Virus record (IMG/VR): IMGVR_UViG_3300045747_000182
Span: 116 to 64,115 of that record
DNA length: 64,000 nt
Reading direction: 5' to 3' (one strand)
Origin: a virus
Both the position numbers and the translations under genes were made by a program. The notes beneath the pieces are model-generated. The model was not told where the DNA came from, did not search any database, and worked only from the letters and a program-made list of their open reading frames with translations. The first letter of the stretch is position 1. The number at the start of each line of letters is the position of its first letter. Below are positions 7,625 to 55,429 of this stretch, one piece after another.

Positions 7625-7628
7625 TACC
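7611..7628 (+). promoter_or_regulatory. Partial copy of candidate phage RNAP promoter motif
   Basis: TAGCCGGAACCTAGTACC; core matches other copies, 3' TATA part diverges. Confidence 0.4.
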
Positions 7629-9202: not shown

Positions 9203-9685
9203 ATGAAGAATTTAAAGATACAAGTCTCAGCGATACCCCCGATCGAAAAGGACATTAAGAAACTTCTTCTTGATATCCTTAACGACTACTGTAAACGGTT
9301 TAATGTTACATGCACAACAAATAAAACCGAAATACACATCTCGTTTATTAACTATGAGGAGTATATATCTTCAGGCCTTGCTACTCACGCGCCTGACTAT
9401 AACAAAATTATGGTTCAGATTGGTGACCCATTCCTGACAAGCGTAAACAGTGATGACTTTTCTGTTGAACCTAACAGTTACACTCTTACGACCTTCATCT
9501 GCACTATATGTCACGAACTCGTACATGTATGTCAATACCTGACAGGTCGTAAGGGTTCAGCACTAAAGGGTAACCACAACAAAGACGACCCCATCGAAGG
9601 TTACTACTTCGATCCTGCAGAAGTTGAGGCCAGAGCCTTGGAAAGCTTTTACAGAGCAAAATACGGACAAAAATTATATGACTAA
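9203..9685 (+). CDS. Putative zinc metallopeptidase-like protein
   Basis: HELVH motif and downstream EVEA. Confidence 0.55.
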   Translation: MKNLKIQVSAIPPIEKDIKKLLLDILNDYCKRFNVTCTTNKTEIHISFINYEEYISSGLATHAPDYNKIMVQIGDPFLTSVNSDDFSVEPNSYTLTTFICTICHELVHVCQYLTGRKGSALKGNHNKDDPIEGYYFDPAEVEARALESFYRAKYGQKLYD

Positions 9686-11528
9686 AAGGTATGTCTTCGA
9701 CATTGAGACCAATGGTTTCATGCCAGAAGTTAATAAGTGCTGGATGATTGTCATCCTAGATGTAGATACAGGTGAAGTGTTTACATATGTTTCCAAGACA
9801 GGAGACATGTGCAAAGAACTCTACAACGGTATGATGAAGTTGTATGAGGCAGACATCCTTATCGGTCACAACATAATCGGTTATGATTTGGTTGTGCTCA
9901 AACACTTGTTCGACTGGGCTCCTATGGCGCAACAACGCATCATGGATACCTACGTGTTGTCTCAGCTGATACAGTACCAGCGAAACCACAAACATAGCCT
10001 TGAGGGTTGGGGTACAGCGCTAGGATATCCTAAGCTGGAGTTCAAAGAGTTCGATAAGTACAGTAATGAGATGCTCACGTACTGTATCCGAGACGTCCAG
10101 CTGAATACTAAGGTATATTTAGACCTACAAGAAGACGGTACCCGTATCATCAAGCGTAATCCACTATTCATCAAAGGTATCTCTGTTGAAATGGAATTCG
10201 CCAAGATCGAAGCAGACATCCGGTCTAAGGGCTGGTGCTTTGATATGGAAACAGCTCTTAAACTACAGGAACATTTAAGTGAACGACTTGCGAAGTCCGA
10301 GGCCTATCTCGAGCCTCTTATTGGAATGCGTTGTATTCCCAAAGATGGAAGAGATGACTACAAGGAACCTGCTTGGCGTAAAGACGGCTGCTACACTGTC
10401 AATACAGTCAAGTGGTTTGACATTCCAATTGAGTCAGGACGACCTTCTCGTACTGGAAGACCTATTGAAGGCCCGTACTGCCGAGTGTCATTCGAGCAGG
10501 GCAAGGTCTCATCTATTGAAGTGGTCAAAAATTATCTCTACAGTATTGGATGGGAACCCGATGAATGGAATTGGGAACGTATTAAAGGAGTAATGCTCAA
10601 GAAAGGACCAAAGCTTACTGAAACAAGCTTACTACCCTTGGGTGAATCAGGAAGGTTAATCAATGAATACTACACAGTACGCTCGCGGCGAGACATCCTT
10701 AAAGGGTGGATTGAAGCAGCTCAAAAAGATGGTCGGCTACATGGTCGTATGTGGACTATTGGTACCCCTACATTCCGATGCCGCCATGAGGTGGTCGCGA
10801 ACATGCCGAGTGTTGACACCGAATACGGTAAGGAGATGCGTGCGCTTCTTAAATGCGAAGAGGGATTTACCATCGTGGGTGCTGACTCCGCTGGTAATCA
10901 GATGCGAGGACTCTGTCACTATATTGGAAACGAAGACTTTACGAACGAGGTAATCAATGGAGACGTCCACCAACGAAATGCCAATGCGCTGGGTGTTACT
11001 CGCAAACTTGCTAAACCCTTCTTGTACGCGTTTCTTTTCGGCGGGGGCGCTGGTAAGTTGGGCCTCATCCTTTCCGGAAAGCGTGATGCAGCCTTGGGAC
11101 AGTCTGCAATCGAAAAGTTTCAAGACTCAATTCCCGGACTTAAAGAACTCAGAGAGTCCCTTGAAGCGCAGTTCTCTAAAACCTCTGAGGCCTTTGGCAG
11201 CAAGAACGCCTTCATCAGAGGTATCGACGGGCGAACCATCTTTGTAAGCAGCAAGCATCAAGTACTGAACTACCTGTTGCAGACCCTTGAAGGTATTACA
11301 TGCAAGGCAGCTATTGTATGGATGAAAAAGGAGTTAATCAAGCGTGGTATTCCTCATTATTTCGCTCTTCATTATCATGATGAGTTTGCAGTGGTCGTAC
11401 CAGATGAGTACGCAGAAGAAGTTAGACTCTTGTCTATTGATTCTTTCACAGAAGCACCAAAAGACTTTGGAGTAACATGTATGAACGGAGACGCTCATAC
11501 GGGGAAGAACTATGCGGAGGTACACTGA
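9678..11528 (+). CDS. Family A DNA polymerase (T7-like, with 3'-5' exonuclease)
   Basis: Exo I DIETNG, Exo II GHNIIGYD, Exo III YCIRD; motif A GADSAGNQMR, B RKLAKPFLYAFLFG, C HYHDEF. Confidence 0.95.
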   Translation: MTKRYVFDIETNGFMPEVNKCWMIVILDVDTGEVFTYVSKTGDMCKELYNGMMKLYEADILIGHNIIGYDLVVLKHLFDWAPMAQQRIMDTYVLSQLIQYQRNHKHSLEGWGTALGYPKLEFKEFDKYSNEMLTYCIRDVQLNTKVYLDLQEDGTRIIKRNPLFIKGISVEMEFAKIEADIRSKGWCFDMETALKLQEHLSERLAKSEAYLEPLIGMRCIPKDGRDDYKEPAWRKDGCYTVNTVKWFDIPIESGRPSRTGRPIEGPYCRVSFEQGKVSSIEVVKNYLYSIGWEPDEWNWERIKGVMLKKGPKLTETSLLPLGESGRLINEYYTVRSRRDILKGWIEAAQKDGRLHGRMWTIGTPTFRCRHEVVANMPSVDTEYGKEMRALLKCEEGFTIVGADSAGNQMRGLCHYIGNEDFTNEVINGDVHQRNANALGVTRKLAKPFLYAFLFGGGAGKLGLILSGKRDAALGQSAIEKFQDSIPGLKELRESLEAQFSKTSEAFGSKNAFIRGIDGRTIFVSSKHQVLNYLLQTLEGITCKAAIVWMKKELIKRGIPHYFALHYHDEFAVVVPDEYAEEVRLLSIDSFTEAPKDFGVTCMNGDAHTGKNYAEVH

Positions 11529-13161: not shown

Positions 13162-14763
13162 ATGAGCAGGTGGATCCACTCACCATGCCCTAAGTGTGGA
13201 TCCTCTGATGCGTTCTCCTACAAAGAGGACGATGAATGGGGTTATTGCTTTAGCTGCACTAAAAATAGCCCTGTAGACCCCAACTCAATTAAAGTATTTA
13301 AAGAGAACTACGATATGCATACACTAGAAGAGATCGATTCATATGACACTCGCGGATTCCAAGAACGTGACATCAAAAAGATTGTCGCTAAGCATTACGG
13401 TGTTAAAGTATCTTATGGTGAGGACGGTACTATTGCCAGTCACTTTTATCCTTATACTAAAGATAACCAGATCGTTGCGTACAAGGAGCGTAAACTTCCT
13501 AAGTCTTTCGTTATCCATGGAGAATTCAAAGGCATACAACTCTTTGGTCAGAACGCTGCATCAGGTGGAAAACGAATTGTCATCACAGAAGGTGAACTGG
13601 ACTGTCTCGCCGTGGCTCAAGCTCAACACGACAAGTATGGCAGGTTCTATCCAGTGGTGGCCATACCTTCAGCGTCGAACACAAAGATGCTCCTTGAACA
13701 ACGAGAGTTCCTGAGATCATTCGATGAAGTCGTCTTAATGTTTGACATGGATGAGCCCGGACAGAAGGCCACTCAGGATGCTGCTCGAATTATCGGCTTC
13801 GATAAGGTTAAGGTTGCAGACCTCCCCGAGAAAGACCCATGTGAGGTGCTCATCAAGAATGGTTCTGAAGCATTGATGATGTGCGTGTTTAACGCCCGTA
13901 CATTTAGCCCTGCAGGTGTAGTCAAAGGTGAAGAAGTGTGGGCACAGTATCTACGCCGGAAGAACACCGAGAGTCTCCCATATCCGGACTGTCTTGCCGG
14001 ACTAAACGACAAACTACAGGGTATGCGTGAAGGTGAAATTGCTCTGTTTACCTCCGGTACAGGCTCCGGTAAGAGTACTGTCATCAAAGAGATTGTCATG
14101 CAGGTGCTCGACAAAACAGAGTCCATGGTAGGTATGGTATCCCTTGAAGAATCTGTAGGTGACACCGCACAAAAGTTCATTGGGATGAAACTCAATAAGA
14201 ACCTTTCAACCGAAGATGTAGGAGAAGAGGAACAATATGCAGCATTTCAAAGCGTGTTTGGAGATGAACGACTCATTCTGCTTGATCATCAAGGATCTGT
14301 TAGCGATGAATCGCTCATTGATAAACTGGAACACTTGGCTCTTATGGGTTGTAAGTATATTATCCTTGATCATATTACTATTGCTGTCAGTGAAGGTATG
14401 AATGGCAAGACAGGTAATGAAGCAGTAGATGCATTCATGAGTGACCTGCTCAAGATCGTCAAGAAGCATAACATATGGCTTGGTGTTGTGTCTCACCTGC
14501 GTAAAGGCGATAAGAAAGTTTTTGAAGAGGGTGACCTACCTTCTATCGATGACATCAAAGGTAGTGGCTCCATCAAGCAGATTTCTTTTGACATCATTGC
14601 TTTTGCTCGTAATATGATTGCTGAGACAGTCCAAATGCGGAACACCATCAAGCTTCGTGTACTGAAGTGTCGCTTTACTGGTCTGACCGGAGACTGCGGC
14701 AGTACATGTTATAATCCTGAGACGGGACGTCTGTATAAACCGACTTTTGTAGACTTCGAATAA
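13162..14763 (+). CDS. DNA primase-helicase (T7 gp4-like)
   Basis: N-terminal CPKC/CFSC zinc finger, TOPRIM ITEGELD / MFDMD, Walker A GTGSGKST, IILDHI, VSHLRK. Confidence 0.95.
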   Translation: MSRWIHSPCPKCGSSDAFSYKEDDEWGYCFSCTKNSPVDPNSIKVFKENYDMHTLEEIDSYDTRGFQERDIKKIVAKHYGVKVSYGEDGTIASHFYPYTKDNQIVAYKERKLPKSFVIHGEFKGIQLFGQNAASGGKRIVITEGELDCLAVAQAQHDKYGRFYPVVAIPSASNTKMLLEQREFLRSFDEVVLMFDMDEPGQKATQDAARIIGFDKVKVADLPEKDPCEVLIKNGSEALMMCVFNARTFSPAGVVKGEEVWAQYLRRKNTESLPYPDCLAGLNDKLQGMREGEIALFTSGTGSGKSTVIKEIVMQVLDKTESMVGMVSLEESVGDTAQKFIGMKLNKNLSTEDVGEEEQYAAFQSVFGDERLILLDHQGSVSDESLIDKLEHLALMGCKYIILDHITIAVSEGMNGKTGNEAVDAFMSDLLKIVKKHNIWLGVVSHLRKGDKKVFEEGDLPSIDDIKGSGSIKQISFDIIAFARNMIAETVQMRNTIKLRVLKCRFTGLTGDCGSTCYNPETGRLYKPTFVDFE

Positions 14764-14770: not shown

Positions 14771-16984
14771 ATGAATCCACTAGACTATCTCACGGCACGA
14801 GTTGAGAAAGTAGTAGTCAACTCCGACAAGATTTACAACGAGGGTGCTCGCCTTCTGGCACACTATCCAACATGGGAATACGAACTTGAACGCTTTATTA
14901 ATGAAAGTTGGGATACTCTCCTACGATACTGTATACGAAACAAAAATGCTAAGTTTACTGCAACCGTCAAACTTACCTTTGCTAGTGACCTCATTGGCAA
15001 ACGGGTGGTTAGGGCTATTGGTGGTGATGAATCAGACATTAAGTCTACTCTTGCCATCGGTGATCTCCTCCTTGAAACGTTTCTTCAGGATGGTCTAATT
15101 GATATCTTCAGGGAATACAATGGGATCAAGGCTCCCTACATGGTACGGATTGTCAATCAGACATGTGATATTAAGCCCACACTTATTGGCACCGTCTTTG
15201 AGCCTCCGTTACCCATCACAGGATTGTTCAGTGGAATTACCAAAGAACCCTTTATCAAAGGCTGGACCAACGGTAAACTGTTTTACGACTACCTCGACAG
15301 ACCCTTTGTTAAGGCACTTGAGACGCTTAGACAGCAGCCTTGGGCTCTCAACAACCCTCTCCTAACTGCTATTCAAAGCAATCCACCACCAGAAACTCTT
15401 GCTCTGGTAGACGCCGATGGTGAAATCCATGAGTGGAATATCCACCATGAGAACCTGCACCTGCCCAAGAAGCTTACTCATACAGATAGTACTGCTTTTG
15501 CCGGAAAGAAAGATCCCAAGCTACAGCGTCTGGTAAGTAAGTACTTTGAGTATGTTCAGGTAGTACGCAAAGCGGAGTTGGTACAGTCACAAGGGTACCC
15601 ATTCTACCAAGAAGTCAGCTGTGACTACCGTGGCCGGATATACTATGCAGAATCCTTTCTGGAATTCCAAGGTAGTGACTTGGCCCGTAGTCTGTTCTTG
15701 TTTCATAACAAGAAGGTGGTTGATCAGCGTGGCTTCTACTGGCTATGTATTCATGCAGCCAGTTGCTTTAATCGATCCTTCACTATTGAAGATCTTCGTT
15801 TGGTAAAGTACTTCGAGACAGACTACATAAACTATCTGCAGAAGGAAGGTCTTGACACTATATCCGTGGATAAGATGACACTCGATGACCGCTACAAATG
15901 GGTCATCCACAATATGGATATGGTCAAGGATGTCTCAGCCCGTAAACTAATCATGGACTACGCGGAAAAACCCTATAGCTTCCTTGCTGTATGTATGGAG
16001 ATCACAAAATACTATGACTGCAAGAAAGCAGGTATCCCTTGCTTGAGTGGCTTTCCAGTACCTATTGATGGCAGTAATAACGGCTGGCAACATCTGGCAG
16101 CTATGAGTAAGGATGCTCAAGCAGGTGAACTTGTTTCTCTGACTAACACACCTATTCAAAAAGACTTCTACGTGGCTGTAGCAAAAGAGCTTATCACTCT
16201 GATGCCTGAATGGTTCTCCGAAAAGAAAATCCCCATGAAGCATATCCGTAAGGGTATCGCTAAACGGGGGTCTATGACTCGGGCCTACTCAGCCGGACGT
16301 AATCGTATTGCAAAGAACATGTACGATGACTGCCATATGGAAGGGTTTACTGTTAAATACGGTATTGATGAGAATACCTGCGGTGAACTGGCAAAGAACC
16401 TTATTGAGGCAATCAATGCTGTCTGTGCCGGACCTCTTCAAACAACCAAATACTTACAAAAGATTGCTGAGCATGAGCTTAATAACAGTCGCAACTCTTT
16501 ATCTTGGCATACTCCAAGCGGATTTCCTGTCGTTTATAAGGCCTTTTTACAGCACGAACGTAAACAACGAGGTACTATCAAGGGTATCGACGGGAACAAA
16601 GATGGGAGAGTAATGCATGTACTTAAAGTTGATGTCCTTAATCAAGAGACTGGCGAAAAGGTGCCATGCCGTAGAAGTTTTGCAAGTGGTATCAGTCCTA
16701 ATGTTGTACACAGCTATGACGCAGCCCACATGGCAAATACAATCGTCGCTTTTAACGGCAGTTTCGCTGCTGTCCATGATTCATTCTCAGTACACGCATC
16801 GGAAGTTGACTTCCTACAAGACGTAACTAAAATGACGTTCATCGCGCAATACGATGTGGACAACTTCTTTGATATCCTGATGGATACTTTGATGCTGCAT
16901 AAGGATACTTTCATGTTCCCTAAACCTGAAACAGGTAACTTAAACCTGAAGGAAGTCAACGAGAGTAAATACTTCTTTTGCTGA
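14771..16984 (+). CDS. Single-subunit T7-type DNA-dependent RNA polymerase
   Basis: CDYRGRIY, motif A PIDGSNNG, motif B KGIAKRGSMTRAYS, PNVVHSYD, motif C VHDSF. Confidence 0.95.
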   Translation: MNPLDYLTARVEKVVVNSDKIYNEGARLLAHYPTWEYELERFINESWDTLLRYCIRNKNAKFTATVKLTFASDLIGKRVVRAIGGDESDIKSTLAIGDLLLETFLQDGLIDIFREYNGIKAPYMVRIVNQTCDIKPTLIGTVFEPPLPITGLFSGITKEPFIKGWTNGKLFYDYLDRPFVKALETLRQQPWALNNPLLTAIQSNPPPETLALVDADGEIHEWNIHHENLHLPKKLTHTDSTAFAGKKDPKLQRLVSKYFEYVQVVRKAELVQSQGYPFYQEVSCDYRGRIYYAESFLEFQGSDLARSLFLFHNKKVVDQRGFYWLCIHAASCFNRSFTIEDLRLVKYFETDYINYLQKEGLDTISVDKMTLDDRYKWVIHNMDMVKDVSARKLIMDYAEKPYSFLAVCMEITKYYDCKKAGIPCLSGFPVPIDGSNNGWQHLAAMSKDAQAGELVSLTNTPIQKDFYVAVAKELITLMPEWFSEKKIPMKHIRKGIAKRGSMTRAYSAGRNRIAKNMYDDCHMEGFTVKYGIDENTCGELAKNLIEAINAVCAGPLQTTKYLQKIAEHELNNSRNSLSWHTPSGFPVVYKAFLQHERKQRGTIKGIDGNKDGRVMHVLKVDVLNQETGEKVPCRRSFASGISPNVVHSYDAAHMANTIVAFNGSFAAVHDSFSVHASEVDFLQDVTKMTFIAQYDVDNFFDILMDTLMLHKDTFMFPKPETGNLNLKEVNESKYFFC

Positions 16985-17031
16985 TGATTACCTTTCTTAT
17001 CCTCTTAACTCTTTGGTTGATCGTACTCCAG

Positions 17032-17049
17032 TAGACGGAACCTAATAAG
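17032..17049 (+). promoter_or_regulatory. Candidate phage RNAP promoter
   Basis: Intergenic TAGACGGAACCTAATAAG matching copies at 55411, 59632, 60147. Confidence 0.6.
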
Positions 17050-17063
17050 AAACACATGAAAGG

Positions 17064-17636
17064 ATGTATATGAACTACGTTGTGTACAGCCATCATAGGT
17101 TAACTGATTGGGGTACTTTCTATATTGGTCAAGGTAAAAACCGAAAAAGAGCATACAGCAAAAGTAACCGTAACAAACACTGGATAAACACAGTAAATAA
17201 ATATGGTTATTTTATTATTGTAAGAGCCACCAATCTAACTAAGGAACAGGCCAACCAACTTGAAATATCTTTAATAAAGCAATACGGCAGAAAAGATAAA
17301 CAAGAAGGCCGCTTAGTTAACCAAACGGATGGCGGTGAAGGTAATACCAGACTCACAAACAGTCAAAAAAAAGCCATACAAAAGTCAAACAGCACCAGGA
17401 AAGTAACAGAGGAAACTAAACGAAAAATCTCTGAATCTTTAAAAGGTAAATGTTTATCTGAAGAAACCAAAAACAAGATGTCAATGCTCCGAAAAGGAAT
17501 TTGTCATTCAGAAGAACACAAATATAAACTAGCACTTGCAAACAAGCTACGATTTAATAAAATAACTTTACAGGAATATAATGAACTCTTATCAATCCAT
17601 AATCGCGAAAAGCCGCTACGCCCGTTATCTCCCTGA
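17064..17636 (+). mobile_element. Free-standing GIY-YIG homing endonuclease with NUMOD3-like repeats
   Basis: VVY...[23 protein letters not shown]; repeats [29 protein letters not shown]; A-rich; overlaps RNR start. Confidence 0.75.
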
Positions 17637-19455
17637 AGAAAGTCGTCGAGAGGATTGGCCTGAAACGTCAGCCCGTTGGATTGAATTCTTTAAAGAAAAA
17701 TTGTCAGACAAAATTGCAGTAAACGATTCTATTTGGGATATCTTAGGTACAAGTATTACCAACCTAGAAACTCTACCATCTATGCGTTCAATCATGACTG
17801 CTGGGCCTGCGCTTACTCGCACAAACGTAGCAGCTTATAACTGCGCATACCTAACTGTAGATCACCGTCGTGCGTTTGACGAGGCAGCGTACATTCTTCT
17901 GTGTGGCACTGGTGTCGGCTTCAGCTGTGAACAACGTTATGTTTCTAAATTGCCACCTATCCCTGTTATAAAAGAATACGATCGTACAATCGTTGTAGAA
18001 GATTCTAAGGAGGGTTGGTGTGAAGCATACAAATCACTCGTTAAGCACCTGTTCCTCGGCGAAATCCCTAAATGGGACGTATCAAAGGTACGTCCTGCAG
18101 GAGCACCACTCAAGACCTTCGGTGGGCGAGCATCAGGACCAGACCCTTTGTGTTCACTATTTGATTACACTGTTACAAAATTTAAGGCGGCACAGGGTCG
18201 CCAACTCAAGCCTATCGAGGCTCACGACATCATGTGTAAGATCGGAGAAGTCGTGGTGGTCGGTGGCGTTAGACGATCTGCAATGATTTCCTTGGGCGAT
18301 CTCGGAGACTATGACCATGCCACGGCTAAGTCAGGTGCTTGGTGGGAAACTCATGGTGAACGCGCACTGGCAAATAACTCTGCAGTGTACGACAGCAAAC
18401 CTTCTATCGGTGCATTCATGAAGGAATGGCTAGACATCTACAACAGTCACTCCGGTGAACGAGGAATCTTTAATCGTGAAGCAAGCCAAAAGCAAGCAGC
18501 TAAGTGGGGTCGTCGTGATGGTACCATCGACTATGGAACCAACCCTTGCAGCGAAATTATTCTCAAGCCCTATCAATTCTGTAATCTCAGTACCGTTGTT
18601 GTATCACCATACGATACATTGGACTCCCTTAAACACAAGGTTAGACTCGCTGCCATTATGGGAACTATGCAGTCAACCCTGACTGAGTTCCCTTATCTGC
18701 GGTCTATCTGGAAGAAGAATACTGAGCAAGAACGCTTGTTAGGTGTATCTATGACAGGTATCCTTGACAATCCAAACTTAAACCGTATGGATGATAATGG
18801 TAAATCTCTTAAATTTGTTCTTGAAACTCTTCGGGAAGTTGCTCGGCAAACAAATGAAGAGTGGGCAGAAATCCTTGGAATTAATCCTTCTGCAGCTATT
18901 ACTTGTGTGAAGCCTGAAGGTACTGTCTCTCAGCTTACTCAAACATCCAGTGGTATTCATGCCGGACACTCTCGGTATTACATTCGCCGTATTCGTCAGG
19001 ACATCAAAGACCCATTGACTCAATTCTTGATGGACCAAGGTGTTGCTTATGAACCCTGCGTTATGAAGCCGGATACTACTGTTGTGTTTAGTTTCCCTCA
19101 AGAAGCTAAAGGTAAAACCCGTAATGACCTTACTGCCATTGAACATCTTGAAATCTGGTTGGCATATCAGCGTAATTACTGCGAGCATAAGCCTTCAGTA
19201 ACTATCAGCATCAAGGACAATGAATGGCTGGAAGTAGGTGCATGGGTGTATGAGCACTTCGATGAATGTACTGGCATCAGCTTCTTACCTGACGACGGTG
19301 GTACATACCGCCAAGCCCCTTACGAAGAAATTGATGAAGATCAATTCAACCATATGACAATGCCCGTAATTGACTGGTCTCTCTTTCATGAAGACCGTGA
19401 TAACGTAGAAGGTGCTCAAATGCTTGCTTGCACTAGTGGCTCATGTGCAATCTAA
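17581..19455 (+). CDS. nrdJ: Class II (B12-dependent) ribonucleotide reductase
   Basis: [32 protein letters not shown]-terminal CTSGSC; no small subunit gene. Confidence 0.93.
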
Positions 19456-19466
19456 AGAAAGAACAA

Positions 19467-19736
19467 ATGAAAATTCTTAAGTTCAGTGGTGACTGGTGCC
19501 AACCCTGCAAGGCACTGCAAGCGGTACTCGAAGACGTTCTACCCTATGACTTCCCCGAAATTGATCTTGTCGAAGTTGATGTCAAGAAAGATCCTGACAT
19601 GACTCGTGAGTGGGGTATTCGATCGGTACCTACTCTTATTCTTATTGATAGTGACGATAACTGGTTGAAGACTTCTGTAGGCTTCATGGACAATGCCAAG
19701 CTTAAAGCATGGTTGACTAACCCAAACAAGGACTGA
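19467..19736 (+). CDS. Thioredoxin
   Basis: WCQPC active site, IRSVPTLI. Confidence 0.9.
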   Translation: MKILKFSGDWCQPCKALQAVLEDVLPYDFPEIDLVEVDVKKDPDMTREWGIRSVPTLILIDSDDNWLKTSVGFMDNAKLKAWLTNPNKD

Positions 19737-19871
19737 TATGTATTACAAAGAAATTGAATCTAACCGTGACAAGAAAGAAGCTCATGATAACGCAGCTAAA
19801 CGTACTGCAGGTGACCGTGCTCTGAAACGTCAGGACTATAACCGTAAAGCAAAGAAGGAGCAAGCAGCTAA

Positions 19872-20150
19872 ATGAACGAACTATTTGATTTTGGACAAGC
19901 AATCCATTCACTAAAAGCAGGTAACAAAGTTACTCGATCAGGGTGGAATGGAAAAGGTATGTTCTTGTTTCTAGTACAAGGGTCTACCTTTGAGGTATCT
20001 CGATCGCCATTGTTTGGTATCTATCCTGCAGGAACAGTTATCAATTACTGCCCTCACGTAGATATGCGTACTGCGGATGGCTCCATTGTGCCTTGGCTAG
20101 CGTCTCAATCAGACATCCTTGCAAATGACTGGATGGTAGTATATGGGTAA
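19872..20150 (+). CDS. DUF2829 family protein (Tad2-like anti-Thoeris sponge candidate)
   Basis: FGQAIHSLKAGNKVTRSGWNGKGMFL...PWLASQSDILANDW. Confidence 0.8.
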   Translation: MNELFDFGQAIHSLKAGNKVTRSGWNGKGMFLFLVQGSTFEVSRSPLFGIYPAGTVINYCPHVDMRTADGSIVPWLASQSDILANDWMVVYG

Positions 20151-20302
20151 AGGGTCTTCACGACGACCTACTGACACCAGTAAGTTTGACAACAACTATG
20201 AGGCTATCTTCGGTAAGAAGAAACCTGTGGAGACCCCTTCGCAGGAAGAGCTTGAGCAGAAGCATAATAACAGCTATGATGAATACTTAATGGAGGCAAC
20301 TC

Positions 20303-20755
20303 ATGACCCAATCTAAAGGATTTGTTTCCCCTTTAAAGAACTTTCATAGTGACAACTTTGTTGCTTACTTTAAAGCACACTATTATCACTTTGCAGTACA
20401 AGGTACTACCTTCGCGCAAGACCATGGCTTGCTGAACGAAATCTATGACTTCCTTTGGGCTGCTCATGATGATATAGGCGAGCAACTTCGTCAACTAGAC
20501 GCCCTACCGTTTCCCTCTATGGCGGCAATGATTGATGCTGCATGCCTGTCTGAGGCTAAAGCGGGTAAGATGTCCTCAGCGGATATGTTTACAGACCTCA
20601 ACAAAGTTTTTGATGTATTAGCCGACTGCGCTCAGGGGCTGTATCAATCAACTGAAATGTATGGTGGACTGCAGACGTATCTTGGAGACTACCTTAAGGG
20701 TCTTTCCAAACTACATTGGAAAATCAAAGCAACTATTGGAAAGAGTATCGAATGA
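20303..20755 (+). CDS. Dps/ferritin-like protein
   Basis: KAHYYHF.V.G..F...H...EIY...HDDIGEQLRQL pattern. Confidence 0.8.
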   Translation: MTQSKGFVSPLKNFHSDNFVAYFKAHYYHFAVQGTTFAQDHGLLNEIYDFLWAAHDDIGEQLRQLDALPFPSMAAMIDAACLSEAKAGKMSSADMFTDLNKVFDVLADCAQGLYQSTEMYGGLQTYLGDYLKGLSKLHWKIKATIGKSIE

Positions 20756-21036
20756 AAAGCTATAACAGTGCAGCCCTTCGGGGTATCGAATATGATGACA
20801 TGGACTTTAAGAAAGACATGTATGAATCTTCAGGTATTACTATCCCTGACCATCTCTTGTACAAGCCTGAAATGAATGACTGGATGCTAAATGAAATGCA
20901 TGGTCGTAATGTTGCAGGTCTTCAGCGAACTGTCAACCCAACTACCAGCAAAAACTATACTGCTGAAGAAGCCTTAAACGAAGCTAACAAACTACGCTCA
21001 TTGGCTAAAAATAATATCAACTCATTGATGTCGTAA
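20752..21036 (+). CDS. Hypothetical protein
   Basis: ATGA-coupled to Dps-like gene; last + strand gene before terminator. Confidence 0.6.
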   Translation: MKSYNSAALRGIEYDDMDFKKDMYESSGITIPDHLLYKPEMNDWMLNEMHGRNVAGLQRTVNPTTSKNYTAEEALNEANKLRSLAKNNINSLMS

Positions 21037-21082
21037 AAAAAATAACCCCTACCGGAGTAATCCAGTAGGGGGTTTTTTATTT
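21035..21082. terminator. Bidirectional intrinsic terminator between convergent blocks
   Basis: A-tract, CCCCTACCGGA-gtaa-TCCAGTAGGGG stem, T-tract. Confidence 0.9.
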
Positions 21083-21083
21083 G

Positions 21084-24000
21084 CTAGTTCATGAAGTAAA
21101 CTAAGCCTCGACGAGCCATCTCCTTGATCTTCTCAAGGTAGTAATTCTTCTCTTTCTGTCCAAGCTTCTGCCACTCACTCAACTTACTCTTGCTTTTGTA
21201 TTCACCTTTATCATCTTTGTAAACAGAGTTCAAGCTGATTTGTTGGTAACTATGCACCAACTTAGCAGCCATCTTTCCGGATATCGTTAAACTATCTTCC
21301 TTAGAGTTAATATCAAAGGGTAAGCTTTCCATAGTCTTAACAATCATCAAGTCTTTTTCACTTGGTTTAGGACCATCTCCAGCTTTATACCTTTCGACAT
21401 TACCTTTAGAGTAACCATACATGAGCCTCCAGTTCATAAGCAAACCTTTGAACATACCTTTAGCTCCAATGTCTACCTCTTTTTCAACCGACAAATTGCG
21501 CAGACCATCATCGTACTGTTTAGTAAAGTCAGAGATAAGAGCATCCTGAACGTTCCACTCAAGTACCTTTGGTAAGACAATATTGTTAGCCACATGCATA
21601 AACGCAAGATAGCTGTCGGTATTAAGAATCAAGTTATCAAACACAGATGCCACAAACTTCATATCCTTAGGTGCTTTACCACCGTTGATATAATTAAGAG
21701 TTTCAGCAACAAGAACCGACTCACGGTATTGTCCAAGGATAGGGCCAATCTGATTACGTGCGGCACTTCCGGGCTCCGGCACATAATGAACATCATCAGG
21801 GCGCTTACCCGTTTTAGGATCTACGTCTTGATAACCCTGAATCATCTTCTCTTTGGCACGCCCCATAGAATCCACTTGAGAAACCGTTTTAGGTATTCGC
21901 GTGGTAGTACCGTCGGCATTAGAGATCTGCATGAAGTCGCCCGTAGGTTGGTTCATGAAGCTACCAATACCAAGAGTCTCACCCCAATAGCCTTTCGCTT
22001 GTGGTAATCGGTTAAGTGTTTGAAGGATAGACACCAAATGCTTAGGTAAAGCCATTTGATTCATGTCAACAACTGACTTGAGTGTTGCATGGAAGATATC
22101 GTTCAAACCTTCAACAAGTTTAGCTCGGCTATTGTCGTATAAAGGTAACAGCTTTTGAGTTAGCTCGGGATTCTTTTGAAGGAACTTAACTGCCTGATCA
22201 AAATTGTATTGAGCAGCTTTGCCGTAGTCAGTAGTCAGCAGTACACCCTTACCAAATTCGTCAGCCTTACTAAAGTCTTTTGCATCAATTGTCTTATTAA
22301 AAAAGTCTTGCCATGCTTCTTTCAGTCCAGGGATATTAGCAGGAACAGCTGTATGGATTGTTTTGTCAGCTGCTACCTTCATAAAGTAAAACCGTGGGTT
22401 ACCATCAGGCTGAGTAGACTCAAAACCACCCTCATGTGCAACAAACGGATCCCACAACATACCTGTCCGGCGAAGAACAACCTCGTTACCGATATCAGCA
22501 GCAAGGAAAGCCCGACCTGCAGAATTCATGTCGATATCTGTGGTTGCTTTAGGTGTAAAGGACAATCCCTTTTCTTTTGCATTCAGATAATCTGCTGCAT
22601 CGAGGTAAGCTTGCAAACGGAATCCCCAATTCTTCTTGGTAGACCCATTAACAAAGTTAGTAATTACCTGCTGTTGCTTTGGCGTCAGCTGAAACCCCTC
22701 AAGAGTTTTAGGGTTCAAACCCGCTGTGACAATACCGTTTTTATCTGTAGGAATAACTGATTTTAGCACTGCACCAATCTCTGCTGCTTTACCAATAAAT
22801 TCAGGACTAACCAAGCTAACCATGTCATGAATTTGTAATGACTCGGTACGCACACCACGCTCTGATCCAACATCAAGGTTCTTACCTAGCACTGCCAAGA
22901 AAGAGAACTCTTTTTGTTTATCAGTCAAATCAAAGTTCTTTTGATTGAACTGCGTTTGCATACCCTTCCAGATTTCTCCGGCTTCCATTTTGCTAATTGG
23001 ATTGGTGTGCCATTTAGGAGTGTTGCTGACATTCATTGCTACATTAACACCGCCAAGGGTAGCACGCAATGGTAGATTACCCTGCATATTTAAGTCTTCG
23101 GCGTCATTATAAGCGCGTTGAACAACATAGTCTGCCCAATGAGGTGCGTAACGAAGACCACCATGAAGAATGTTTTGAGAGTTGTAATTCAAAGTCTTCA
23201 TCAGGCCAGTTGCTTGTGCGCGAAATGCTGAAGTCTCAGTAGCACCGTCTGCTGAAAGACCCATCAGCTTAGATACATTGGGGATACCTTGGATAGGTAG
23301 AGGTAAGCGAGTACGGGCGTCTTTATTGGCTGTAAATGAGTTGCCGCCGCCCTCTATACTAGGTAAAGGTAAAGCTCCTGCAGCATCATGAATAGCATTA
23401 ATACCAAACAAGATACCATAAAATGCGCGTTCAGGTGAAGGTACATACCCCACAGACCCAAGAATACGCATAGTCTCAGTCATCACAGGTACTTCTGTCT
23501 TGTTAACACGGTTAGGTGCTCCGCGACGAGTATTGATTTGTGCTCCAACTGGATTACCAAAGTTAGTAACTGGCGTAGCTTGCGACCGACCACGACCGCC
23601 TTCAGTAAGGTCAGCTGCAAGGCCACGTGAAGAAGTAATAAACTCGCGGCCATTAATCGGGCTGAATTGGTACATTTCTTTACCGTCAACTATATCCCTT
23701 AGCATTGTACCTGACTCAACTGCAGCGTTAAGCAGAAGAGCACCGCCATAATTTGAGTTCATTGTAGACAGCGGTTTAAGAGCTTGTCCTGTTAATGGAT
23801 CTACAGCAGTACGCCTTGTAAGGTTTTGGAGGCCTTTACCGAATACACCAATAGCAGTGTCTCTATCAATCTTACCTACTTTGGCTTGTGGTTCTACAAT
23901 ACCTTCATCTTCAAACAAAGAACCAAATTCGTTGCTATTAAGGAAGTCCAATGAGTCAGCCGCCTCTTTATGTCCACTGGCAATATCCCCATCTTTAACT

Positions 24001-24698
24001 TCTTCAGCACCCATAAAAATTGGAGCGGTAATAGCCAATACTTTCGTGGCAAGGGCAGCTGCTGCCGGAGCACTCTTAAGGTGATAACCTTCCATAAGAG
24101 CTACAAGACCGTTCGAATGGGCGTTCATACCAATACCACCATCAATTTGGGATACTGTCATTGAATTCAGGGTATCGCCAATCCGACGAGCAGTCTTCAT
24201 GATAGTCGCTGACTCTTGAGTATCAGGTCTAGCCATAGAAAAAGCTTGCTGAAGCTCTTCTTCATTACGGAAACCCTCGGAACCCCGCAAAGCATTAAGC
24301 TTTTGCAGTCTCATAGTTTCTTCGTAGTGCGCTCTGGCTTGTTCAATGTTCAAAGGTAGACCGTCCGGCCCCATTGCTTCCAATTGGGGTTGCCCTTGAT
24401 TAGGGAAGGGTTCTTGAACAGCTTCTTCCGGCTGAGCTTGCTGTGCAAATTCATCGGTAAACTCAGGTACACTATAATTGTTTGCACTCCCTGTAGACTG
24501 TCTATTCTCGGGAAGATCACCCATAGCATTTGCACGAGTATAATCCAGCGCAGACTGGTCCATAATAAGACCTTGACCTGCCAGGTCTTGTCCAAAGTTC
24601 TTTTGGGTATTAGCTGACGGAGGTACCGGAGCAGGCTTAGGAATCTCAATAGGGGTTGTCTGGGAATTAAAGTTGCCAGAGCTTGAAAACTTACTCAT
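21084..24698 (-). CDS. Internal virion protein with N4 virion-RNAP-like single-subunit RNA polymerase domain
   Basis: Ordered motifs: DYVVQRAY..LNMQGN (R528), DIDMNSAG (D723), K817-x7-Y825G, SVFDN (D1021); last gene of the ejection-protein block. Confidence 0.8.
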   Translation of the reverse strand: MSKFSSSGNFNSQTTPIEIPKPAPVPPSANTQKNFGQDLAGQGLIMDQSALDYTRANAMGDLPENRQSTGSANNYSVPEFTDEFAQQAQPEEAVQEPFPNQGQPQLEAMGPDGLPLNIEQARAHYEETMRLQKLNALRGSEGFRNEEELQQAFSMARPDTQESATIMKTARRIGDTLNSMTVSQIDGGIGMNAHSNGLVALMEGYHLKSAPAAAALATKVLAITAPIFMGAEEVKDGDIASGHKEAADSLDFLNSNEFGSLFEDEGIVEPQAKVGKIDRDTAIGVFGKGLQNLTRRTAVDPLTGQALKPLSTMNSNYGGALLLNAAVESGTMLRDIVDGKEMYQFSPINGREFITSSRGLAADLTEGGRGRSQATPVTNFGNPVGAQINTRRGAPNRVNKTEVPVMTETMRILGSVGYVPSPERAFYGILFGINAIHDAAGALPLPSIEGGGNSFTANKDARTRLPLPIQGIPNVSKLMGLSADGATETSAFRAQATGLMKTLNYNSQNILHGGLRYAPHWADYVVQRAYNDAEDLNMQGNLPLRATLGGVNVAMNVSNTPKWHTNPISKMEAGEIWKGMQTQFNQKNFDLTDKQKEFSFLAVLGKNLDVGSERGVRTESLQIHDMVSLVSPEFIGKAAEIGAVLKSVIPTDKNGIVTAGLNPKTLEGFQLTPKQQQVITNFVNGSTKKNWGFRLQAYLDAADYLNAKEKGLSFTPKATTDIDMNSAGRAFLAADIGNEVVLRRTGMLWDPFVAHEGGFESTQPDGNPRFYFMKVAADKTIHTAVPANIPGLKEAWQDFFNKTIDAKDFSKADEFGKGVLLTTDYGKAAQYNFDQAVKFLQKNPELTQKLLPLYDNSRAKLVEGLNDIFHATLKSVVDMNQMALPKHLVSILQTLNRLPQAKGYWGETLGIGSFMNQPTGDFMQISNADGTTTRIPKTVSQVDSMGRAKEKMIQGYQDVDPKTGKRPDDVHYVPEPGSAARNQIGPILGQYRESVLVAETLNYINGGKAPKDMKFVASVFDNLILNTDSYLAFMHVANNIVLPKVLEWNVQDALISDFTKQYDDGLRNLSVEKEVDIGAKGMFKGLLMNWRLMYGYSKGNVERYKAGDGPKPSEKDLMIVKTMESLPFDINSKEDSLTISGKMAAKLVHSYQQISLNSVYKDDKGEYKSKSKLSEWQKLGQKEKNYYLEKIKEMARRGLVYFMN

Positions 24699-27600
24699 TT
24701 AATAATCTCCTAGTTCTTTCTGCAAATACTTTGCGAAAGCTGGTGTTGTTCCAAACACAGGCAATGTTCTTACTAAAGTCTGTGTCTTGTGTCCGGGTTT
24801 AGCGGATAGAGCATCATCTATTTTGTTTAGATATGCTAAAGCAGGGGCTTGATCAGCAACATTAGAGGCTATTGTTGCAGCAAATCCTTTTGCTTTTGTA
24901 GATTCGGGTACTGTTGGTGAGATAGCATCCCATACGCGTTGTCCTGATCCAAGGAATCCGGCCTGACCTATAAAGCGTTGAAACTTCTTGTCATCTTTAA
25001 GCCATTCAGGTGGGGATTCGCCGTACTTAATAAGGTCTTTCATATACAACGCAAAGAAGGTGAGAGCCATCATCATAGCAGCCGTAGCAGCAGCGTTAAC
25101 TTGATCTGCTGAACCTGACTTGCGAAGATCTTTTAGCAACAACGGCAACACATTTGCTGTGAACGCCGAAGTGTAACCCTGAAACTGAGTAAACAATTGC
25201 AGATAAGGATCGTTGTAAAACTTTGGCCGATTCATTTTTGTAGGATGAATAACAGCTTCAGTTGTAAAATTATGAGCGCCTGTAGTGAGTTGTTCCCGCA
25301 TGCGTTGTTCATAATCAGGATGTGATGGTTCTGCGTTAAGCATCCAATCAACATCCACACCAATACGTATCAGATGCTCTCTTGCATCTTGTGCCTTTTG
25401 TGTAGGAGGCCCATTAGGGCTATCCTTAAGGTCTTGCAGTATAGTGTTGTTCCAGTTGTTAATAGCATCAGCACCAATAGATAACTTAGCAAAGCGAGTA
25501 ATGTTAGTTACACTGGTTAGACCAGTCATCTTAAAGAAACCTTCAGTCCACTTACGAAATATTCCATTAATAACATCTTGCCTGTGACCCATATCACCTT
25601 CGGCAGAGAATCCATGAACAAACAAAGTGTTACGGTAATCTTTTACAAGTGGTGACTTCTCAGGATTCTTCCCAAGAGATTGTATTGCATTGGCCATTTC
25701 CGCACCAAAGCCTTTTAAGAGTGCTTTAGTTGCCTTCAAAGCTTGAGGCATTGTCAAATGACGATAGACCTGAGCGAACTCTACGGTACTAGAGATAGCA
25801 GCCAAAGGAAGACTACTAACCACAGAAAGGAAATTAACAGTATCAAGGGCACCTTTCACATAAGGGTTATTTACAGGGTGATACTCACCATTACGCATTG
25901 CAATCCAGTCTTGAAGCTCTTTGGCAAACATAGATCCACGCTCAGGGCTGATAGATCCCTCGTCAATTGCCCCTTTAACCAGAGCCGCCAGATGACTTCC
26001 ATTTTTACCTAAAAGGTTTTTATGAGTATAAATAGCTGCACCTTTAGCTGCCAAAGAACTGGCATTGGCAAGGGGGTCGTGATGCAGGAACTTATGGAAG
26101 GCTGTCTTGACTGCAGGGTCATTTAATGCTTGTTCAGTTCTATTTTTTAAATCAGCTAGAGGATCAGAAGCACCAAAGAAAGCTTCCATTGGGTCTGTAA
26201 TTGCATTGACATCTACGTTGTTAAGTATCTTGTTAACAACTTCGTCTGCTTCGTGCGGAGCTAGTTTCATGTGTTGCATCAAGAGCTTTTTGAATTCTCC
26301 TGTATTACGAGCAATAGCTTGTTTGTTAACGGGTTTACTTTCTAGGGCCTGTTGTAAAGATAGCTCTTGTCCGGTTACTCTGTTGTACTCCTTAACCAAT
26401 GCACCAAGCTTTTCAGTGTAAGCAATAATACCCTCACGGTACTTAACATTGTGAGCCCCGATGTCTGCATTAAGGTCATACCGAGTTACAGCATCACGAA
26501 CTCCTTTAACGTCAAGACCTTCACTAACACGATTCAGCTTAAGGATTGCTTCAGTGATTTTAGGATCAGACAAAAGCATACTGATTTCAGCAAGAGACTT
26601 TGTGCCAAATGCTACTTTAATTTCGTCAGGAGAACCAAACATATTACTCAGTTGCTGAGCCATATGTCGTTGTTGTTCCTCAATACTGCCACCATTGAAA
26701 GCACGAGAAGAACCTAGCAGTGATTGTAATGCTAAAAGGTTATTACCTTCTTTACCATCGGCTGTAAACATATTTGACCACTTATCCCAAAGGCTTTTCA
26801 CACCTTTGTTCTGCCACCAATTGCTGATAGCACTAGTTACTCCAGAAGTTTCACGCCGGAGGTTTTCTGCTTGAGCTAGATCCGCAAGGTTTGCTTCTTC
26901 ACTACCTTGTACAGCACGATCAATCTGCTCAGACGCATTAGGTACATATCCAAAAGTGTTAATCAAGCTTGCTTGCCGTTGGAGATCATTCATCTTAGGT
27001 GTTACATCAGCGCTAGTAGTTCCACGTAACAGCAAATGACCACCTGCACCGAATGCACCACCAAGACCAACACCACCTGCGGAAGCATTCAGCACGCGGT
27101 TCTTCAACGCAGACATATCTGTTTGATTGTCAGGCAAACTCAGAGAACCTTGTTCACCGAAGTATTGAGTAAGCTCTTGTAAGCCTTCTGTTCCACCTTC
27201 AGCCAAAGCGTCGCCAACAACAATAGAAGGAAGACGACCCAAAGATCTTTCTGCAGTCCATTTTACTTGTTTAGTTGCTTGCTCTGCATCTTTAAACGCT
27301 TGCAGCTTACTGAAGTCAGTGATATCTTTAATAGACTTCTTGGCACTATCCAGTAGTGCTTCTTCTGCAGCTGGTTTTGAATAACCCTTTTTAACTAGTT
27401 CTTCAATAACCTTATCACGAGTTTCTTTTTGAAAGAAGCTACCGTGAATATGTCCAATAGAGAAATTGTCAAGTGCGGCCTGAAGAATACCTGAGCCAAT
27501 AGCAAAGGTTGCATTTTTACTTTCTTGGTTTTGCCATGTCTGTCCGGCGTAAACAATTGCAGGTGCAGACAAAGAAGCACCCATGGTTAGAGGTGCTGCA

Positions 27601-28526
27601 GCAGTAGCCGCAATTGAGAGCATCATTTGAGGTGCAGAAGCAAAGGCATTACCAACAAGCCAATCAGATGTTTTGGAAAAAGAATCAAGAGTCCACTTAC
27701 CGTCTTCATTAAACGCATTGCCATTACGAAGATTAGGCAGGTCACTTAAGTCAGCTTCGTAAGCATTTGTCTTACGCTGAGCCATTGTCTGCAAGTAATC
27801 ACTACCAATGGAGTTGCCAAGTATATCTAAACTTGCCCAAGCACCCTGCTTCATGCTGGCCATGCCTTGTTCCCAACCAGTAGCTATGTTACTTCGAGCT
27901 TCACCCTTATAGTTTTCATCAGACTTTATCTGTGCTGGGGCAATATAGTAGGGGTTGTTACCTTGATGGTCAAGAGTAGCACCATAAGATTTTGCGTCAG
28001 GCGCATAAAGCTTTGCCATGAAAGTATCTTCATTGAAAATACTGTTCATTGCATTAAGATATTTATCTTCTTTTGTTGGTGCTTTAAACTGTTGTCGGTT
28101 TATAGCCTTATCAAAGTCTGCAAAATCTCTGCGGTTACTTGCATTAGGGTCAAACGTAGTTGTATCCGCAAGACGGTTTGCAGCAAGGTAGTCGCTGAGA
28201 CCTTCTCCGCGATCGTTAACCAAGTCGCCTACAACTCGATTGTACTTATCTTTTTTCTCTGTAAGAACAGGCTTATTAAAACCCTTTTCAGCTCTAATAC
28301 GCCGCACCATTTCCGTTTGAGCATCTGCTCCAGTATAGGAAGGTGAGAAGTCTCCGGCTACAGTACCAATCTTCTGAGTTTCACGAGTGTTAACCGATGG
28401 TAGCCGCAGGGACGTACTGTCTAGTAACTCAAACGTGTCGCCATCCTTGTTGTATGGTACTTGCTTAAGAGGAGGAACATAAGGGACTTCTCCCTGTTGC
28501 CTTAATGCATCATCAAATTGCCCCAT
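24699..28526 (-). CDS. Large internal virion (ejection) protein with N-terminal SNase-like domain
   Basis: 1275 aa; DGDT..LRLPSVNTRE..DKYNRV near N-terminus; Ala/Gly-rich hydrophobic stretches. Confidence 0.75.
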   Translation of the reverse strand: MGQFDDALRQQGEVPYVPPLKQVPYNKDGDTFELLDSTSLRLPSVNTRETQKIGTVAGDFSPSYTGADAQTEMVRRIRAEKGFNKPVLTEKKDKYNRVVGDLVNDRGEGLSDYLAANRLADTTTFDPNASNRRDFADFDKAINRQQFKAPTKEDKYLNAMNSIFNEDTFMAKLYAPDAKSYGATLDHQGNNPYYIAPAQIKSDENYKGEARSNIATGWEQGMASMKQGAWASLDILGNSIGSDYLQTMAQRKTNAYEADLSDLPNLRNGNAFNEDGKWTLDSFSKTSDWLVGNAFASAPQMMLSIAATAAAPLTMGASLSAPAIVYAGQTWQNQESKNATFAIGSGILQAALDNFSIGHIHGSFFQKETRDKVIEELVKKGYSKPAAEEALLDSAKKSIKDITDFSKLQAFKDAEQATKQVKWTAERSLGRLPSIVVGDALAEGGTEGLQELTQYFGEQGSLSLPDNQTDMSALKNRVLNASAGGVGLGGAFGAGGHLLLRGTTSADVTPKMNDLQRQASLINTFGYVPNASEQIDRAVQGSEEANLADLAQAENLRRETSGVTSAISNWWQNKGVKSLWDKWSNMFTADGKEGNNLLALQSLLGSSRAFNGGSIEEQQRHMAQQLSNMFGSPDEIKVAFGTKSLAEISMLLSDPKITEAILKLNRVSEGLDVKGVRDAVTRYDLNADIGAHNVKYREGIIAYTEKLGALVKEYNRVTGQELSLQQALESKPVNKQAIARNTGEFKKLLMQHMKLAPHEADEVVNKILNNVDVNAITDPMEAFFGASDPLADLKNRTEQALNDPAVKTAFHKFLHHDPLANASSLAAKGAAIYTHKNLLGKNGSHLAALVKGAIDEGSISPERGSMFAKELQDWIAMRNGEYHPVNNPYVKGALDTVNFLSVVSSLPLAAISSTVEFAQVYRHLTMPQALKATKALLKGFGAEMANAIQSLGKNPEKSPLVKDYRNTLFVHGFSAEGDMGHRQDVINGIFRKWTEGFFKMTGLTSVTNITRFAKLSIGADAINNWNNTILQDLKDSPNGPPTQKAQDAREHLIRIGVDVDWMLNAEPSHPDYEQRMREQLTTGAHNFTTEAVIHPTKMNRPKFYNDPYLQLFTQFQGYTSAFTANVLPLLLKDLRKSGSADQVNAAATAAMMMALTFFALYMKDLIKYGESPPEWLKDDKKFQRFIGQAGFLGSGQRVWDAISPTVPESTKAKGFAATIASNVADQAPALAYLNKIDDALSAKPGHKTQTLVRTLPVFGTTPAFAKYLQKELGDY

Positions 28527-55410: not shown

Positions 55411-55429
55411 CCTTATAAGGTTCCGGCTA
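55411..55429 (-). promoter_or_regulatory. Candidate phage RNAP late promoter upstream of terL
   Basis: Minus strand TAGCCGGAACCTTATAAGG. Confidence 0.65.

Follow-up and report, generated by a model that had tools for sequence, protein, structure and literature searches.

The 64,000-nucleotide (nt) stretch of viral DNA analysed here (the window; positions 116-64115 of the 64,134-bp IMG/VR virus record IMGVR_UViG_3300045747_000182) comes from an uncultured short-tailed phage, a podovirus of the CRP-7 type, that has two single-subunit RNA polymerases (RNAPs) of its own. One of them, RNAP1, is a single-chain enzyme of the T7 type whose gene lies at the end of the replication genes. The other, encoded among the ejection proteins on the opposite strand, is a compact enzyme without cysteine which, judging from gene order and composition, is probably packaged in the virion and ejected. 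The occurrence of a compact, stand-alone, virion-type RNAP beside a single-chain T7-type RNAP is what is new here; the N4-style logic is already known, N4 pairing a virion RNAP (vRNAP) with the T7-like RNAPII (PMC13434306). The record has terminal repeats and is rated 100% complete. The two polymerase genes, with lengths in amino acids (aa), are:

14771-16984, plus strand: RNAP1, single-chain T7-type RNA polymerase, 737 aa, 13 cysteines (PF00940, phrog_414)
21084-24698, minus strand: compact second single-subunit RNAP, candidate virion RNAP, 1204 aa, 0 cysteine (fold, profile, motifs)

RNAP1 is a normal, cysteine-containing, cytoplasmic T7-type enzyme. It matches PF00940 RNA_pol with 188 bits (cut-off 22; E 3.7e-55) and phrog_414 with E 4.6e-94, and the hhalign output contains the DxxGR motif together with motifs A, B, and C. 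The gene begins 8 nt past the end of the primase-helicase gene, which agrees with an earlier sequence-only reading of this DNA, where a 737-aa T7-type RNAP had been placed after the primase-helicase:

13162-14763, plus strand: primase-helicase, directly upstream of RNAP1 (phrog_239, E 5e-150; Toprim and DnaB_C Pfam matches)

The closest cultured homologue of RNAP1 is gp30 of phage CRP-7, with 31% identity, followed by the RNAPs of T7-like phages at about 25%. Comparison with the two subunits of N4 RNAPII, gp15 and gp16, gave weak, short, collinear matches at the C-terminus of gp15 and the N-terminus of gp16.

Fold, motifs, and family of the second polymerase

The second RNAP is sequence-cryptic, and with its catalytic residues intact it is predicted to be active. 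Direct sequence searches of Pfam, PHROGs, and the PDB (by phmmer) gave no match, and neither did a tblastn search of 50,697 phage records. A profile of 9 sequences had no match in the PDB, and the 9 homologues are likewise without a Pfam match. A profile of 37 sequences found only sub-threshold matches in the PDB (E ~2), all of them to human mitochondrial RNAP (mtRNAP) in the region of motifs T and C. BLASTP of the second RNAP and of its two giant neighbours in the ejection block against N4 gp50 returned noise only. PF00940 thus does not match the protein, and homology becomes visible by profile-profile comparison and by fold alone.

The protein consists of a low-complexity N-terminal extension of about 270 aa and, after it, the entire body of a T7-like polymerase. 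Residues 270-1204 were modelled with AlphaFold2, using 9 homologues in the alignment, and the model reached a pLDDT of 78 and a pTM of 0.76. Foldseek gave 73 matches of this model in the PDB at E<=1e-3; the best 50 of these 73, which are the ones listed, are all single-subunit RNAPs, with E 4e-11 for yeast mtRNAP, 8e-11 for T7, and 4e-9 for the N4 mini-vRNAP (TMq 0.44). In VIA, the model aligned with the T7 elongation complex with a Z score of 22.4 over 518 residues, spanning T7 residues 25-883, and with the N4 mini-vRNAP with a Z score of 17.4 over 583 residues. A search of BFVD yielded 47 matches at E<=1e-3. About one third of these rows are unnamed, and the named ones are T7-type RNAPs, N4-type vRNAPs, or similarly long proteins with uninformative names; among the top matches, T7-type RNAPs and N4-like vRNAPs (matched in their polymerase segments) are evenly mixed.

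The family alignment comprises 37 members that share 14-39% identity with the second RNAP. Residues R528, R545, D723, G746, G912, and D1021 are invariant in 37/37 members, and G728, R769, K817, Y825, G826, and N1038 are conserved in at least 90% of them. Comparison of this family with 18 T7-type RNAPs by hhalign gave a probability of 92.5% and E 4.8e-7 over 430 collinear columns, which map D523..R528 onto DxxGR, D723 (in DIDMNSAGRAF) onto motif A, K817..Y825-G826 onto motif B, and NQIGPILGQYRES...VFD1021N onto motifs T and C. The segment aligned with DxxGR reads D523-Y-V-V-Q-R528 followed by N-M-Q-G, with the Arg invariant, Gln in place of Gly, and one extra residue; its Asp (D523) is not retained in gp33 of CRP-7. 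A TEGGR sequence at about residue 366 had been a candidate for the T/DxxGR motif and was dropped, given that hhalign and the invariance in the family place the motif at D523-R528. The agreement of fold, profile, and catalytic residues goes far beyond chance and identifies the open reading frame (ORF) 21084-24698 as an RNA polymerase, which sustains the proposal of the sequence-only reading that the ejection block holds a second RNAP, here the last of its three giant genes.

When 1.84 billion representatives were searched with a profile, 158 clusters (50% identity, metagenomes) matched at E<=1e-3. Among the 150 of the 158 matches that were listed, nearly all full-length ones have 1100-1440 aa and none is near 3500 aa. 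All of the family members that were looked up are unnamed or annotated as hypothetical, and with the identification the annotation is put right for a widespread group of aquatic phages in which a key gene is labelled hypothetical everywhere. Against the polymerase domains of N4 vRNAPs, the family gave an hhalign probability of 13% and E 2e-3 over 259 columns, and N4 vRNAPs against T7-type RNAPs gave 2.5% and E 0.018. Because these E-values follow the order 4.8e-7 (family to T7-type), 2e-3 (family to N4), and 0.018 (N4 to T7-type), the new family bridges the two groups and is nearer to the T7-type in sequence. This lends modest support to the intermediate lineage that the sequence-only reading had thought possible. 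With regard to the nearer relative, the Z scores and the HH-suite comparison favour the T7-type enzymes, whereas the TM-score and the aligned length slightly favour N4.

Ejection block and pairing of the two polymerases

The genome is organized in two convergent coding blocks, one per strand. The plus-strand block runs from about 55.5 kb across the record ends to about 21.0 kb and opens with about 12 small ORFs (the early region, about 55.5-59.6 kb). The replication set follows, first with a Gp2.5-like single-stranded DNA-binding protein (SSB), RNA ligase, DNA ligase, DNA polymerase A (9624-11528), and exonuclease, and then with primase-helicase, RNAP1, a homing endonuclease, and a class II ribonucleotide reductase. 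The minus-strand block extends from 55373 down to 21084 and carries terL, portal, scaffold, major capsid protein, tail and fibre genes, endolysin, and lastly three giant ORFs of 1086, 1275, and 1204 aa, which close the late operon. A hairpin separates this late block from the convergent replication block. The features of this region, besides the polymerases, are:

21035-21078, no strand assigned: bidirectional intrinsic-terminator-like hairpin (A-run, 7-bp GC-rich stem, T-run; read from the sequence)
24699-28526, minus strand: IVP-D-like internal virion/ejection protein, 1275 aa, 0 cysteine (phrog_6958 virion structural protein, E 1e-26)
28540-31800, minus strand: ejection protein with a lytic transglycosylase domain, 1086 aa, 0 cysteine (phrog_4067, residues 368-528, E 1.7e-14)

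Residues 839-1134 of the 1275-aa protein match the particle protein gp50 of LUZ24 (tblastn, E 1e-8), and through phrog_6958 and this similarity its C-terminal part appears to belong to the lineage of IVP-D (T7 gp16). The N4 vRNAP was itself placed inside an IVP-D homologue by Hardies et al. (PMC4819975), and this work and the LUZ24 gp50 similarity are the sole grounds for the IVP-D link. Equivalence of the 1275-aa protein to the C-terminal domain (CTD) of N4 gp50 was rejected, given that Foldseek gave no match and hhalign against full-length N4 vRNAPs was not significant, with a probability of 1%. The positional equivalents of the 1086-aa protein in relatives bear Pfam SLT or Phage_lysozyme domains. 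At its N-terminus, the 1275-aa protein has a fold like that of staphylococcal nuclease (SNase) in an AlphaFold2 model (Foldseek TMt up to 0.60, probability 1.0), and PF00565 scores 19.6 bits, slightly below the cut-off. This region, residues ~25-165 (window 28032-28454, minus strand), might be a nuclease that is injected, or a module that binds nucleic acid, adjoining the polymerase.

The TAA stop codon of the 1275-aa ORF abuts the ATG of the second RNAP, which has an AGGAG ribosome-binding site of its own. The junction of the two genes always measures 0-10 nt in 22 relatives and varies in frame; the two are therefore coupled and yet encode separate polypeptides. Fusion of the 1275-aa and 1204-aa ORFs by readthrough was rejected, given that relatives show TAATG overlaps or 4-nt spacers and other frames.

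The composition of the second RNAP sets it apart from the other enzymes of the same phage. Cysteine is absent from the three giants (3565 aa in total), as it is from N4 vRNAP gp50 (3500 aa). It amounts to 0.013% in the 37-member family versus 1.58% (median 12 per protein) in the homologues of RNAP1, and the other replication enzymes of the genome have 12-14 cysteines each. Within a single genome, such a contrast is difficult to account for unless the second RNAP is subject to the same constraints as proteins that exit from the capsid.

The combination of both enzymes described by the sequence-only reading recurs in viromes. Of the related loci surveyed, 3 came from exact look-ups and 31 from IMG/VR. 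A convergent T7-type RNAP lies 1-5 kb downstream of the second RNAP in 27/34, which are all the loci with enough flank; the remaining 7/34 stop 0-4.1 kb beyond the second-RNAP gene, short of the expected position of RNAP1. The IVP-D-like and transglycosylase proteins are present in all loci that have upstream flank. Three more distant members, at ~17% identity, keep the same order, with a lysozyme- or SLT-bearing giant, a giant of 1400-1600 aa, and the RNAP-like gene, and then a convergent PF00940 RNAP, primase-helicase, exonuclease, and DNA polymerase A. The pairing of a compact virion-type RNAP with a single-chain T7-type RNAP is diagnostic for a widespread and almost uncultured phage group, and full-text literature searches brought up no account of either a second or a virion RNAP for the CRP-7-type group. 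Among relatives whose RNAP1 is 59-97% identical, the second RNAP is 26-44% identical.

One relative, the 64,914-bp JGI contig L008, is 97% identical to the window in RNAP1, 47% in the IVP-D-like protein, and 31% in the second RNAP. Given this mosaicism, the replication and ejection modules have separate histories, with the boundary near the convergent terminator. In another relative, of 64 kb (L006), a gene for an ISL3-family transposase (19978-20712, minus strand) lies between the primase-helicase and the T7-type RNAP, that is, an insertion sequence in a lytic-type phage genome.

Promoter-like sites and a proposed transcription programme

The coordinates of an 18-nt motif, TAGCCGGWACCTWATAAG, had been given in a companion to the sequence-only reading and were tested here. 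The genome contains 4 matches with at most 3 mismatches, versus 0.08 expected, and a fifth, gapped copy is also present. The promoter-like sites are:

55412-55429, minus strand: upstream of terL, exact TAGCCGGWACCTWATAAG; position kept in the relatives G001 and G003
60147-60164, minus strand: upstream of the 129-aa ORF 59735-60124, 4 mismatches; position kept in G001 and G003
59632-59649, plus strand: TAGCCGGWACCTWATAAG match at the end of the early region and start of the replication block that begins with the Gp2.5-like SSB
17032-17049, plus strand: 48 nt past the RNAP1 stop; position kept in L024, L036, L013, G001, and G003
7611-7628, plus strand: weaker site in the middle region, 3 mismatches

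In the complete relatives G001 and G003, TAG[C/T]CGGTACCTAATAGA is found at the same places and also after the capsid gene. The motif is assigned to RNAP1 because this enzyme is 64-74% identical between these two genomes and the window, whereas the second RNAP is just 31% identical. This assignment would therefore put the late genes under a phage enzyme, unlike in N4. It is thus plausible that RNAP1 drives the late genes, as the sequence-only reading had supposed for the T7-type enzyme, with the motif standing before terL and the 129-aa ORF in places that two relatives have kept.

The early region contains a different element, present in two copies:

56502-56563, plus strand: copy 1, TTCTC..GAGAGACC hairpin, then a variable-stem hairpin with the fixed loop GGTAAGTA
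56948-57009, plus strand: copy 2, same two-hairpin family (D7)

Across three genomes there are 5 copies (in G003 at ~25449-25528 and ~25849-25928, in G001 at ~5615-5694), with four different, fully paired stems and a fixed 8-nt loop, GGTA(A/T)GTA. Rfam families gave no matches in the early region. The element could be a structured DNA promoter or a signal for RNA processing or stability. Between terL and the first early ORF lies a G+C-rich non-coding leader of ~300 nt. This leader contains, upstream of the first early ORF, a CTTTGGGGTACCC block (55565-55600 and 55636-55660, plus strand), whose GGTACC core also occurs in the late promoter-like motif; this block is conserved in G001 and loosely in G003. 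Among the hairpin and motif candidates of the early region, none could be assigned as the early promoter.

From these data a likely programme may be proposed in which the compact polymerase would be made late, packed in the capsid with the two other cysteine-free giants, and ejected with the DNA, to make the first transcripts from the small ORFs of the early region (~55.5-59.6 kb). RNAP1, once made, would read TAGCCGGWACCTWATAAG-type promoters and so transcribe the other genes of the plus strand as well as the entire late block on the minus strand, with the gene for new virion polymerase in it. Because the ejected polymerase would cover the early genes and RNAP1 the rest, host RNAP may be dispensable. 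A wider interpretation, possible if doubtful, is that the compact cysteine-free polymerases form a third class of virion RNAP, made up of stand-alone enzymes whose sequences place them between the T7-type RNAPs and the N4 vRNAP, and that they would preserve the state from before polymerase and IVP-D were fused in the ancestor of N4; with a T7-type partner whose promoters precede the late genes, they would make widespread aquatic podoviruses independent of host RNAP from the first to the last transcript.

If true, this could be the first podovirus programme without need for host RNA polymerase at any stage. Packing, ejection, and refolding of a polymerase would also become open to study in a much smaller system, the disputed descent of the N4 enzyme from T7-type enzymes and IVP-D would gain a link at the sequence level, and a new pair of single-subunit RNAP and promoter would be at hand for possible biotechnological use. 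The virion RNA polymerases structurally characterised so far are N4 gp50 and the crAss-like gp66 only (PMC13434306).

Several observations weigh against the programme proposed. The Pfam domains of the N4 vRNAP (PF21769, PF21894, PF21624, and PF21867), present in every N4-like homologue listed, are all absent from the second RNAP at E<=0.01, and the hhalign link of the family to N4 is weak (13%, E 2e-3); the analogy to N4 is therefore one of fold, position, and composition. The two-hairpin element is nearly identical in genomes whose second RNAPs are just 31% identical, and it is therefore a poor fit to a polymerase-specific promoter and may instead be a signal at the RNA level. A hairpin with a 3-nt loop at 55681-55693, of the type of the N4 promoters (5-7 bp stem, 3-nt loop; P1 and P2 were read in N4 DNA for comparison), was rejected as the early promoter, being conserved in neither G001 nor G003. 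RNAP1 lies downstream of its own promoter-like sites. Finally, the sequence look-up that revealed near-identical DNA in wetland and pond metagenome runs found no RNA runs matching the genome sequence.

Part of these observations would be accommodated by an N4-like programme with three polymerases, in which the ejected enzyme reads the early genes, RNAP1 part of the rest, and host RNAP one class, such as the RNAP1 gene or the middle genes. This is how N4 works (PMC13434306), and it would suit the location of RNAP1, which follows the early region at a distance of ~19 kb and comes after its own promoter-like sites, the early promoter that could not be assigned, and the bacterial-type hairpin/T-run terminator that divides the two blocks. 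Nonetheless, this alternative is somewhat unlikely, given that the late operons, which host RNAP reads in N4, have the RNAP1-type motif in front of them, and that the SSB of this phage is Gp2.5-like, with no homologue of the N4 SSB found in the genome. Sites resembling sigma-70 promoters are not enriched in the early region either (22 versus 17.2 +/- 4.1 in shuffles), which is weak evidence, as the sigma-70 consensus may not be that of the host.

The second RNAP could also be a late cytoplasmic enzyme that is not packaged and merely shares an operon with the ejection proteins, serving a very late class of genes or the priming or processing of replication. T7 RNAP and mitochondrial RNAP also serve replication, and the virion location of the second RNAP is deduced from gene order and composition alone. 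This is quite unlikely in view of the absence of cysteine across the whole family, which is common to the neighbouring ejection proteins and the N4 vRNAP and not to RNAP1, and of the constant position of the gene directly after the IVP-D-like gene. Moreover, an enzyme made last has little left to transcribe, and the phage already encodes a primase-helicase. It is very improbable that the second RNAP is an ejected structural or translocation component that kept the fold and lost polymerisation, as its divergence relative to RNAP1, the Gln in the DxxGR motif, and an Asp in place of the basic residue of motif B 12 positions before the conserved Tyr (T7 R627) might suggest, given that both catalytic Asp residues are invariant, that at least 90% of the 37 family sequences, diverged as they are, retain the Lys, Tyr, and Gly of motif B, and that the whole polymerase body is kept from the N-terminal domain to the C-terminus.

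Comparison with known phages and further features

The packaged and ejected polymerase that is preferred here has its nearest counterpart in N4 and the Schitoviridae. N4 likewise has two phage single-subunit RNAPs, gp50 (mini-vRNAP, residues 998-2103; PDB 2PO4, 3C2P, 9PNR) and RNAPII (gp15/gp16). Its vRNAP gene closes a leftward late operon convergent with the replication genes and adjoins those of the ejection proteins gp51 and gp52, much as the second RNAP lies in a set of ejection proteins; the vRNAP is cysteine-free, has the same fold (TMq 0.44, Z 17), and has a T7-like partner enzyme. The differences are equally clear. The polymerase described here is a separate protein of 1204 aa, about one third of the size, whereas that of N4 is the middle domain of a 3500-aa chain (N-terminal domain, RNAP, CTD). 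It follows the IVP-D-like protein, whereas in N4 the polymerase precedes it, and its sequence similarity to the N4 enzyme is marginal. RNAP1 is a single 737-aa chain with a T7-like N-terminal domain, located at the end of the replication block, and RNAPII is a heterodimer of gp15 and gp16; RNAP1-type promoters precede the late genes, which in N4 are left to host RNAP. With no three-domain chain of 3500 aa, no N4 Pfam domains, and a reversed IVP-D order, the second RNAP is outside the N4 vRNAP family.

T7-like phages (Autographiviridae/Autotranscriptaviridae, including the phiKMV-like phages with the RNAP after the replication genes) share with this phage a bona fide PF00940 enzyme, RNAP1 having 25-27% identity with its counterparts in, for example, LUZ100, Ralstonia phages, and pelagiphages. 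They also share DNA polymerase A, primase-helicase, exonuclease, Gp2.5-like SSB, and ligase, short conserved phage promoters, and internal virion proteins that include a transglycosylase domain. In contrast, the present genome has 64 kb, two coding strands, much larger ejection proteins, and a second RNAP among them, whereas T7-like particles carry no polymerase. With two RNAP genes and two convergent blocks, the phage is not one of the T7-like phages, which have one non-virion RNAP and one coding strand. The description of the genome as unlike both T7-like and N4-like phages in the sequence-only reading is thus correct for the former and overstated for the latter, because N4 too has a virion RNAP and a T7-like RNAPII, with the virion RNAP last in a leftward late operon.

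Among the 50,697 records, the only cultured phage with the same layout is CRP-7, a Planktomarina roseophage (MK613349), in which DNA polymerase, exonuclease, primase, and RNAP gp30 are followed by the minus-strand giants gp35, gp34, and gp33. Its gp33, in which motifs A, B, and C are preserved, clearly belongs to the second-RNAP family (hmmsearch 172 bits; hhalign 99.7%, E 1e-25). The authors of CRP-7 (Zhang et al. 2019, PMC6918029) name ORF30 alone as an RNAP and leave gp33-35 hypothetical. CRP-7 is marine, has a genome of 58 kb, and its gp33 is related to the second RNAP in a way that is detectable by profile only. Given the large divergence (31% identity in RNAP1), the phage is a distant member of the CRP-7 group and not of the same genus. 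The layout has thus not been found in a described genus, CRP-7 being unclassified and annotated for gp30 only.

In the crAss-like phage phi14:2, gp66 is an RNA polymerase delivered from the capsid (PMC13434306), which resembles the delivery suggested here. It is a two-barrel enzyme of cellular type, with a fold unrelated to that of the right-hand T7/N4-type enzyme of this phage.

Other features of the genome were observed outside the two polymerase modules. The gene at 3910-4671 (plus strand) matches the N-terminal domain of dATP/dGTP diphosphohydrolases (PF18909, E 3e-25), a family known to occur in phages with modified nucleotide pools. Its interpretation as a T7-lysozyme-like regulator of RNAP, from the PHROG label 'endolysin; inhibits RNA polymerase', was dropped in view of the Pfam result. 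The 129-aa minus-strand ORF at 59735-60124, which the sequence-only reading had called terS, is without functional match in PHROG or Pfam; it stands isolated between the early region and the SSB gene and is 56-63% identical in relatives. The 1256-aa tail/fibre-like protein (ORF 36930-40700, minus strand) contains at least 8 diverged periodic repeats of 66 nt (22 aa) at 38605-39669. Repeated regions comprising ribosome-binding site and start codon are found at 185-224, 62946-62968, and 63726-63765 (plus strand), and a 44-nt repeat is found at 50-93 and 349-392, which suggests a small family of paralogous genes across the record ends.

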